Virus record (IMG/VR): IMGVR_UViG_3300022187_000019
Source: a virus
Taxonomy: Duplodnaviria; Heunggongvirae; Uroviricota; Caudoviricetes
DNA length: 64,000 nucleotides
Reading direction: 5' to 3' (one strand)
The number at the start of each line of letters is the position of its first letter. Positions within the stretch are counted from its first letter, which is position 1. The notes beneath the pieces were generated by a model. It made no database searches. It was not told the origin of the DNA and saw nothing but the letters and a program-made list of their open reading frames with translations. Both the position numbers and the translations under genes were made by a program. Positions 1,396 to 1,479 of this stretch are shown one piece after another.

Positions 1396-1479
1396 GCCGC
1401 CTTGGCCGAGAGGTAAGGCACCCGGTTGCAACCCGGAGGTTCCGAAAGGACGCAGGTTCGATCCCTGTGGGCGGCTCCA
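1396..1479 (+). tRNA. type-II (long variable arm) tRNA with GCA (Cys) anticodon, non-canonical
   Basis: acceptor GCCGCCT/GGGCGGC, 3-bp D stem, anticodon stem cccgg/ccgga loop TTGCAAC, 14-nt variable arm, T-arm GCAGGTTCGATCCCTGT, TCCA. Confidence 0.6.

Follow-up and report, generated by a model that had tools for sequence, protein, structure and literature searches.

The window analysed here is a stretch of 64,000 nucleotides (nt) from a tailed-phage record in IMG/VR (IMGVR_UViG_3300022187_000019), and the element under study is a cysteine transfer RNA (tRNA-Cys) gene with a long variable arm that lies near its beginning, at positions 1396–1479. ARAGORN reports a tRNA-Cys(GCA) of 84 nt at exactly these positions on the plus strand, with the anticodon at position 33. 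The Rfam tRNA model RF00005 covers 1396–1476 over its full model length, scoring 45.9 bits against a gathering score of 29 (E = 5e-8 in 2.5 kb and 1.3e-6 over the whole window), and its alignment places an 11-nt insertion in the variable region. In the textbook view, a long variable arm is found only in leucine, serine, bacterial tyrosine and selenocysteine (Sec) tRNAs. A first-pass annotation, made from the letters of the window, had described a type II tRNA with a 14-nt variable arm and a D stem of three base-pairs (bp), had named GCA as the sole possible anticodon and had flagged the union of a long arm with a cysteine anticodon as unusual. Reading of the sequence, ARAGORN and Rfam all bear out the shape, ARAGORN agrees on the anticodon within the 7-nt loop UUGCAAC, and the combination does fall outside the textbook set.

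By its variable region of more than 10 nt folded as a stem-loop and its 3-bp D stem, the gene has the class II shape, and these 14 nt with their hairpin depart from the loop of 4–5 nt that characterizes a type I tRNA-Cys. The individual elements are collected in Table 1. In the sequence as read, U8 and G9 stand between the acceptor and D stems, the D stem is formed by G10-C25, C11-G24 and C12-G23, and A26 lies ahead of the anticodon stem. The variable hairpin consists of the pairs U-A, C-G and C-G under a GAAA loop, and the T loop carries the usual UUC at 54–56 and A58. The minimum free energy structure from RNAfold contains the acceptor (6 of 7 pairs), anticodon, T and variable hairpins of the cloverleaf, with the D hairpin in another register. 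Because the folding energy is ordinary relative to shuffled sequences (z = -0.70) and is thus uninformative, the case for a tRNA rests on the model scores and on conservation.

Table 1. Elements of the long-arm tRNA-Cys gene and other features of the window.
Feature	Positions	Strand	Evidence
Long-arm tRNA-Cys(GCA) gene, 84 nt, encoded CCA	1396..1479	+	ARAGORN, Rfam, 86–99% identical copies in 12 other contigs
Acceptor 5' strand GCCGCCU; pairs with 1469-1475 (7 bp: G1:C72, C2:G71, C3:G70 ... U7.G66)	1396..1402	+	sequence
D arm: 3-bp stem GCC/GGC, G13.A22 mismatch, 9-nt loop with G15 and G18G19	1405..1419	+	sequence
Anticodon arm: stem CCCGG/CCGGA with 4 standard pairs and conserved C27.A43 mismatch, loop UUGCAAC	1421..1437	+	sequence, Rfam
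Anticodon GCA, reads UGC/UGU	1428..1430	+	ARAGORN, sequence
Variable region, 14 nt: GGU-UCC-GAAA-GGA-C (G44 G45 U, hairpin 1441-1450, C48)	1438..1451	+	sequence, RNAfold
T arm GCAGG-UUCGAUC-CCUGU: 5-bp stem, G49.U65 as first pair	1452..1468	+	sequence, Rfam
Acceptor 3' strand GGGCGGC	1469..1475	+	sequence
Discriminator U73 (T at 1476), then encoded CCA (1477-1479)	1476..1479	+	sequence
Same-strand array of 13 tRNA genes	3..1564	+	ARAGORN
tRNA-Ser(CGA)	344..430	+	Rfam tRNA-Sec model, 35.3 bits (below gathering score of 47)
tRNA-Ser(GCU), upstream neighbour	1302..1388		
tRNA-Trp(CCA), downstream neighbour	1489..1564		
Permuted two-piece tmRNA, alphaproteobacterial type	5922..6376	+	RF01849 (68.8 bits), RF04321 (79.6 bits)
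RtcB RNA ligase	10758..11999	+	Pfam, E = 1e-122
Tyrosine integrase	23174..24535	-	Arm-DNA-binding, central and catalytic domains

The gene lies between a tRNA-Ser(GCU) and a tRNA-Trp(CCA) and is the only tRNA-Cys of its array. Likewise, the long-arm gene is the sole tRNA-Cys in every fetched locus that carries one. The window is part of a large tailed phage of an alphaproteobacterium, relatives of which were reached by blastn of the window and by tRNA pattern scans; a related-locus search with the neighbouring 541-amino-acid protein alone returned no relatives. The closest cultured relatives by blastn are Erythrobacter phages XM05 and vB_EliS-L02 and Sphingobium phage Lacusarx, with 76–80% nucleotide identity over 9–25% of the first 25 kb of the window. 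The order ...Gln-Ser(GCU)-Cys(GCA)-Trp(CCA) is common to these three phages and to a 163-kb contig, UViG_3300045450_000055, and in all four relatives the Cys gene at that slot is 74–75 nt long with a variable loop of 4–5 nt.

The short tRNA-Cys of Lacusarx (NC_041927, 70954–71027) is identical to the window gene over the first 15 nt, a stretch that takes in the complete acceptor strand and reaches into the D arm, and matches it at 22 of the first 24. It also shares the near-identical D arm, the GCA anticodon in a UUGCAAC loop, U73 followed by CCA, and the 7/5 arrangement of acceptor and T stems. The common slot and 5' end indicate that the window gene is the counterpart of the normal phage tRNA-Cys, from which it differs in its 14-nt hairpin variable region, its C27.A43 mismatch and its T stem. 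The 3-bp D stem with a 13.22 mismatch, which the first-pass annotation had counted as a type II mark, loses that meaning in this comparison. Nearly the same D arm is present in the short tRNA-Cys of Lacusarx and UViG_3300045450 (and in tRNA-Ser(GCU) of Brevundimonas phages), so that it represents a tRNA-Cys trait here and provides no evidence of Ser, Leu or Tyr ancestry.

Related genes were sought with two pattern scans. The first combined the D arm of the window gene (GGTAAGGC-type) with a UUGCAA loop located 20–32 nt before GGTTCRA. This yielded 8 stretches in viral contigs, 7 of which are long-arm tRNA-Cys, and 16 in metagenome contigs, including 8 long-arm tRNA-Cys. Among 185,579 bacterial and archaeal species (one genome each), 10 stretches were returned and none is a tRNA; as the cellular and metagenome scans used the GGTAAGGC-type pattern only, this cellular absence holds for the pattern of the window family and not for all long-arm tRNA-Cys. 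The 15-mer at the 5' end of the gene, GCCGCCTTGGCCGAG, proved too unspecific as a query, giving at least 120 viral stretches with no tRNA among the matches listed. Overall, the window gene recurs at 86–99% identity in 12 other independent viral and metagenome contigs. Its presence in independent metagenomes rules out a chance match, and an assembly artefact was rejected on the same ground.

Carriers of this window family, namely the 12 contigs of the first scans plus contig L234 from the second scan, share acceptor, anticodon-arm and T-stem sequences. The acceptor 5' strand is invariant across the 8 distinct family sequences and is the same as that of the short Lacusarx tRNA-Cys. In 12 of the carrier contigs the stem of the arm is also constant, with loops of GAAA, GUAA or GAGA. 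In L149 the arm differs but is fully compensated (CCCC-GCAC-GGGG, in which U:A is replaced by C:G and a further C:G is added), and in L132 the 31:39 pair is changed on both sides, from G:C to A:U. All substitutions among the 8 sequences fall in loops, at the already mismatched position 43, or are compensatory. The fold of the window family is therefore under purifying selection.

The window-type gene is also the most conserved tRNA of its arrays, at 86–99% identity between contigs compared with 63–80% for most other tRNAs, the exceptions being tRNA-His (86–92%) and one tRNA-Gln(CUG) (92%). It occurs in varied surroundings, with tight spacing in the window, spacers of 100–270 nt elsewhere, and a quite different array in L146. 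This combination of conservation and changing context suggests more than neutrality. The copies in L127, L234, L140, L149 and L146 behave as a conserved or mobile cassette. In L127, the copy at 3982–4067 is flanked by 3707–3981 and 4068–4335, and one of the spacers holds an apparent small open reading frame (ORF) with a start near position 4075.

The second scan, of viral contigs, left the D arm free and asked for UUGCAA, the T loop and U73 followed by CCA. Of the 112 stretches obtained, approximately 78 are reported by ARAGORN as tRNA-Cys of 82–94 nt. The two scans together yielded, from viral and metagenome contigs, 66 distinct long-arm tRNA-Cys sequences that carry a wide variety of acceptor stems. 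Their acceptor and T stems are paired in 64–66 of the 66 sequences, and as many as 8 kinds of pair occur at a single position. The central three pairs of the anticodon stem are present in every sequence, the 31:39 pair in 58 and the 27:43 pair in 43. The tertiary 15:48 contact covaries (G:C in 29 and A:U in 23 of 55 long-arm tRNA-Cys), and base pairs within the variable region exceed those of all 500 shuffles (3.29 versus 2.65 +/- 0.10). These stem pairings, the covariation at 15:48 and the pairing in the arm indicate working tRNA folds.

Long-arm genes are a minority among phage tRNA-Cys. In 240 control loci fetched for other reasons, 11 GCA-anticodon calls comprise 10 short forms and a single long one (L376, a locus itself selected by a control pattern for tRNAs lacking U73), and a narrower pattern for the short form gave at least 120 matches. 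When 18 concatenated long-arm tRNA-Cys were compared by megablast with 50,697 cultured-phage records, only a 34-nt match was found, between one long-arm family and the ordinary tRNA-Cys of Pelagibacter phage HTVC019P. Similarly, blastn of the window tRNA revealed no cultured phage with the long-arm form. Our literature search found no paper describing a long-arm tRNA-Cys of the 7/5 type, and a 2020 review of non-canonical tRNAs lists selC* tRNACys as its only long-arm tRNA-Cys entry. Thus, long-arm tRNA-Cys is apparently a recurrent, undescribed feature of uncultured phages.

The patterns of conservation make it very improbable that the gene serves outside translation, whether as a regulatory RNA, as a decaying gene or by drawing off a tRNA-binding host factor in the manner of a decoy or sponge. 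The tRNA hallmarks are intact and selected, as seen in the compensatory changes, the 15:48 covariation, the T loop and the encoded CCA, and no other gene of the array could provide tRNA-Cys. A decaying gene would not stay so well conserved across divergent arrays. Phage tRNA-like decoys are conceivable, and both the conserved C27.A43 mismatch and a folding energy no better than that of shuffles would suit such a role. However, 27:43 is also mismatched in 23 of the 66 long-arm tRNA-Cys and in functional-looking Ser(GCU) neighbours.

We regard as extremely improbable the proposal that processing of the transcript removes the extra hairpin of 10 nt and joins the flanking ends, with RtcB of the phage as one possible ligase, so that a short tRNA-Cys results. 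RtcB is the ligase of archaeal and eukaryal tRNA splicing, and the window encodes one approximately 9 kb from the array, directly past a primase-like gene. However, relatives with a short tRNA-Cys encode RtcB too, neither a splicing endonuclease nor a bulge-helix-bulge motif was found, and similar GNRA hairpins occur in native class II tRNAs of the same arrays. Moreover, covariation with position 15 is seen at position 48, the 3' border of the region, and would be expected of a variable region that is retained in the mature tRNA. In Lacusarx, tadA and rtcB are found together at the same place. The RtcB of the window and the tadA and rtcB genes of Lacusarx suggest that this phage group invests in tRNA repair and editing.

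The strongest determinants for cysteinyl-tRNA synthetase (CysRS) are U73 and the GCA anticodon (PMC9976931, PMC5389517), and both are present in the window gene. Scans that left position 73 free recovered 10 distinct long-arm tRNA-Cys, all with U73. Among the 120 matches listed for long-arm GCA tRNAs lacking U73, there is only one such tRNA, compared with approximately 78 of 112 for U73. This tRNA of 91 nt, at L376:1152–1242, begins GGCAGCG, carries G73 and has a variable region of 19 nt. As a candidate serine-type reader of cysteine codons, it is more plausible than the window gene. A long arm is itself compatible with CysRS, because selC* tRNACys provides a precedent for charging of long-arm tRNAs by this enzyme (PMC5389517).

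Features expected for the three common class II identities are missing from the window gene. A tRNA-Ser would be recognized by G2:C71 and A3:U70, usually G73, and an arm of 5–7 bp. In phage loci with long-arm tRNA-Cys, the tRNA-Ser carry G2 in 57 of 57 cases and A3 in 52 of 57, whereas only 13 and 7 of the 66 long-arm tRNA-Cys have G2 and A3, respectively. The window gene has C2:G71 and C3:G70 in place of the serine pairs, and Giege and Eriani count C2:G71 among the antideterminants that act against E. coli seryl-tRNA synthetase (SerRS) (PMC9976931). It also has U73 and a 3-bp arm. In the same loci the variable region has a median of 14 nt with a 3–4-bp stem in long-arm tRNA-Cys, compared with 18 nt and 5–6 bp in tRNA-Ser, and the arrangement with one unpaired base on each side of the arm is seen in 2 of 66 tRNA-Cys versus 39 of 58 tRNA-Ser. 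For tRNA-Leu and tRNA-Tyr the expected discriminator is A73 (observed in 73 of 77 and 14 of 16 cases in these loci), with U35 in addition for Tyr, and the window gene has U73 and C35.

Codon usage was examined with 44 tblastn alignments (61% identity) of window ORFs against relatives that have a short tRNA-Cys. The UGY codons (UGC or UGU) of the window align to Cys in 78 of 129 cases and to Ser in 3 of 129, and the reverse comparison is symmetrical. There is thus no sign that UGY is read as anything except cysteine. The first-pass annotation had suggested that the tRNA might be a recoding device that inserts Ser or Sec at UGC/UGU, or else an anti-defence decoy. Recoding is not supported, in view of these alignments, of the non-serine acceptor stem and of the fact that the gene replaces a normal tRNA-Cys at the same array slot while keeping U73 and GCA, and nothing points to a decoy role.

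An affinity with selC-like tRNA-Cys or with allo-tRNAs, raised in that same annotation, is likewise not borne out by the fold. As in the window gene, selC* tRNACys combine U73 and a long variable arm with a GCA anticodon (GCA or UCA in selC*) (PMC5389517). However, selC* tRNACys have a Sec-like 8/4 helix, an A51a bulge and extended stems in the anticodon and D arms (Mukai et al. 2017, PMC5389517), and their hosts are anaerobic bacteria with selenocysteine machinery, sometimes including a dedicated CysRS or SelB copy (PMC5389517). The window gene has a 7/5 fold, a D arm of the ordinary tRNA-Cys type instead of the Sec type, and a 5-position anticodon stem, and it lies in a tRNA array of an alphaproteobacterial phage instead of beside selB* or cysS*. 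Among the 20 largest ORFs of the window, no gene resembling sel (SelA-like), SepCysS or an aminoacyl-tRNA synthetase was found. The selC*-type assignment was therefore rejected on the fold, the D arm and the anticodon stem. Authentic tRNA-Sec was also rejected, since there is no 13-bp (8/5) branch, G73, UCA anticodon or 6-bp D stem. Furthermore, the match kept by Rfam at 1396–1476 is the tRNA model, and overlapping matches from the same clan are hidden, so tRNA-Sec did not outscore it.

Allo-tRNAs are predicted to accept serine and are defined by a helix of the 8/4 or 9/3 type and by a tetraloop capping a long D stem (PMC5389517). The window gene resembles them, including the (8/4) tRNASer of alphaproteobacterial phages, in its long arm, in a discriminator of the G73/U73 type, in the odd pairing of anticodon with structure and in its location within a phage tRNA cluster. 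It differs in having 7 plus 5 pairs and a 3-bp D stem with a 9-nt loop carrying G18G19, and an alternative 8/4 fold was rejected because U8 cannot pair with U65. Two other tRNAs encountered in this work have a different character. The tRNA-Ser(CGA) of the window, also present at L127:3712–3797, matches the Rfam tRNA-Sec model and not the tRNA model, and a Sec-like Ser(GCU) in L127 (37.7 bits) was missed by ARAGORN. Both look like the (8/4) allo-type tRNASer described from tRNA clusters of alphaproteobacterial phages (Mukai et al. 2017, PMC5389517).

Two further comparisons are informative. The nev-tRNAs of nematodes are leucine-type tRNAs with altered anticodons that are mischarged with Leu in vitro (PMC3333845). 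They share with the window gene a class II shape under the anticodon of a class I-shaped isotype, but they keep leucine identity, whereas the window gene keeps the identity elements that match its anticodon. Among phage tRNA-Ile(UAU), a set of 90–94 nt in length that has A73 and shares a conserved arm of the CCAGAUUAGCG type is reminiscent of the nematode nev-tRNA-Ile(UAU). Bacterial tRNA-Tyr offers the second parallel, because only one domain has the long-arm form of this isotype (PMC9976931), which shows that an isotype can gain or lose the arm and keep its identity. Tyr-like arms, of 3 bp with 3 unpaired nt on the 3' side, are found in many of the long-arm tRNA-Cys. The window family, unlike tRNA-Tyr with its A73 and U35, resembles Ser(GCU) and Cys.

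Some leads on the source of the arm come from these resemblances. The C27.A43 mismatch is common to the window tRNA-Cys and the Ser(GCU) of the window, Lacusarx and XM05. The D arm, anticodon stem and arm start (GGU...CCGAAAGG) match tRNA-Ser(GCU) of XM05 and Brevundimonas phages, and positions 8–72 are 78.6% identical to a Brevundimonas-phage tRNA-Ser by blastn (E = 3e-6). With Ser(GCU) directly upstream, and with GCU and GCA one anticodon base apart, a Cys/Ser(GCU) recombinant is plausible. Two other long-arm families, with GTGAGCG and GTATCGG, share acceptor stem, D arm and arm with the tRNA-Tyr of a T4-like phage, whose anticodon GUA is also one step from GCA. A recent duplication of a co-resident tRNA-Tyr or Ser(GCU) was considered and is unsupported, as no special similarity exists within loci. 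Global identity of long-arm tRNA-Cys to any isotype is 0.65–0.85, and with similarity this low both globally and within loci, statements on origin are leads only. Several independent origins seem likely.

Taking these results together, we infer that the gene is likely to encode a functional tRNA-Cys that is charged by CysRS and used in translation, in which the arm is a tolerated and probably stabilising addition. The tRNA would be transcribed as part of the polycistronic array and would fold into the usual L-form, in which the acceptor and T stems combine as a 7/5 helix and G15 and C48 make the Levitt pair. Class I synthetases, including CysRS, approach the acceptor stem from the minor-groove side, leaving the variable region toward solvent. 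This geometry is reportedly that of Ruff et al. 1991 and of the E. coli CysRS-tRNACys structure 1U0B. We therefore propose that the extra hairpin projects from the solvent-facing side and is tolerated by the host CysRS, which would add cysteine by way of U73 and the GCA anticodon, and that the charged tRNA would decode UGC and UGU as cysteine. The C2:G71 pair, the lack of A3:U70, U73 and the short 3-bp arm would keep SerRS and the leucyl- and tyrosyl-tRNA synthetases (LeuRS, TyrRS) off. The gene may have descended from, or recombined with, the ordinary short tRNA-Cys occupying the same slot in related phages, with a module of anticodon stem and variable arm that resembles tRNA-Ser(GCU) of the neighbouring type. 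By default, the arm would then be a structure-stabilising, tolerated add-on to a tRNA whose D arm was already of the class II type.

Several observations weigh against this interpretation. Charging by CysRS is deduced from identity elements defined mainly in E. coli, in which the tertiary core (G15:G48, A13:A22) also influences CysRS. The tRNA-Ser(GCU) of this phage group also has U73 (window 1302–1388; L001:3001–3087; L124 c4433–4520; L125:15114–15203), a departure from the usual bacterial G73. Across the 58 tRNA-Ser of loci with long-arm tRNA-Cys, G73 is present in 43 and U73 in 11. Hence, U73 alone does not exclude SerRS. Indeed, a long arm with G73 or U73 has been taken to suggest serine identity (Mukai et al., PMC5389517), and the resemblance of the D arm, the anticodon stem with its C27.A43 mismatch and the arm start to Ser(GCU) makes residual serylation conceivable. 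Lastly, a neutral add-on leaves unexplained both the stronger conservation of the gene relative to its neighbours and the recurrence of long arms in many unrelated phage tRNA-Cys lineages.

The first group of these objections bears on a dual or serine identity, in which SerRS would read the long arm and charge the tRNA wholly or partly with serine, so that UGC and UGU would partly be read as Ser, or in which serine would subsequently be converted on the tRNA. SerRS ignores the anticodon and relies chiefly on the long variable arm (PMC9976931), and both U73 and the body of the tRNA find counterparts in Ser(GCU), as described above. We nevertheless consider this identity quite improbable. The G2:C71 and A3:U70 pairs are replaced in part by an anti-SerRS pair, the arm is shorter than that of tRNA-Ser and of different geometry, and the gene stands as sole tRNA-Cys in place of a normal one in a phage whose UGY codons align with Cys. 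Sustained Cys-to-Ser errors would also harm the phage's own Cys-dependent enzymes. As noted above, no SelA-, SepCysS- or synthetase-like gene was found among the 20 largest ORFs.

The remaining objections, namely unusual conservation and recurrence, would be accounted for if the tRNA is charged with cysteine as outlined above but the arm is an adaptive mark. By altering the shape of the tRNA, such a mark could evade a host nuclease or toxin directed at tRNA-Cys, or the phage's own shut-off of host tRNAs, or could allow a phage factor for repair, modification or processing to tell phage from host tRNA-Cys. We regard this as unlikely. In either form, the tRNA would constitute a private cysteine-decoding supply for the phage during infection. 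More broadly, and only tentatively, phages may have repeatedly re-shaped tRNA-Cys, and occasionally other type I tRNAs, to class II, creating a private channel that is charged by CysRS and hidden from a factor that recognizes or destroys normal tRNA-Cys. The identity elements largely exclude a bolder form, in which SerRS charges the arm-bearing tRNA and a phage enzyme converts Ser to Cys on it.

Escape of phage tRNAs from defences that target tRNA has been described, as has a VapC toxin specific for tRNA-Cys. An adaptive role is also consistent with the occurrence of the trait in viral and metagenome contigs, while 0 of 185,579 cellular species genomes match the window-family pattern, and with its appearance in many unrelated acceptor-stem lineages and the strong conservation of the window-type gene. 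The different array contexts (L146, L126-type and window) suggest spread or strong selection, and the closeness of RtcB to the array may be a sign that tRNA damage matters to the phage. However, no nuclease or defence system specific for tRNA-Cys was recognized in the window or could be linked to these hosts, and RtcB accompanies short tRNA-Cys in relatives as well. The anticodon loop, the part recognized by known anticodon nucleases, has an ordinary sequence in these tRNAs (UUGCAAC/A).

Occasional extra arms in other phage isotypes (Asn, Lys, Ile, Trp and others) further argue against a Cys-specific pressure and point rather to a general tolerance or tendency of phage tRNAs. Extra variable-arm hairpins were noted in phage Asn, Lys, Ala, Trp, Gly, His, Gln and Met tRNAs, although some of the listed rows are parsing artefacts. 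The loci include L125:11751–11835, L351:3601–3692, L168:3004–3089 and 3098–3185, L373:4700–4793, L164 c5458–5550 and L194:1170–1263, among others.

Some further features of the phage were recorded. The window has a G+C content of 60%, and Pfam searches of its 20 largest ORFs, 13 of which have no match, identify a DUF5906 primase-type protein, RtcB, a tyrosine integrase, an AAA ATPase, a NUDIX protein and the large terminase. The integrase, which has a counterpart in Lacusarx, sits in an otherwise large-looking (>100 kb), tRNA-rich phage. A transfer-messenger RNA (tmRNA) of the permuted two-piece type was detected by Rfam; it was not reported by ARAGORN, which did report tmRNAs in relatives.

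For tRNA biology, these findings establish a canonical 7/5 tRNA-Cys that bears a long, selected arm, as one member of a group of 66 distinct phage sequences that covers many lineages. The result is structurally surprising for tRNA specialists, although the function is probably conventional. Gain of an arm appears to be an accessible and repeatable evolutionary step, which bears on the origins of class II tRNAs and on the switch of tRNA-Tyr between classes in different domains. The sequences offer natural test cases for the discrimination of class II tRNAs by CysRS, SerRS, LeuRS and TyrRS, and they are a possible source of ready-made orthogonal scaffolds for tRNA engineering. They also serve as a warning for annotation, because length or shape filters and rules that equate type II with Ser, Leu or Tyr will mislabel phage tRNAs. 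If the arm is merely tolerated, it would be a modest curiosity. If it is adaptive, it would represent a new strategy in the conflict between phage and host over tRNA, with the variable arm as a previously unrecognised axis.

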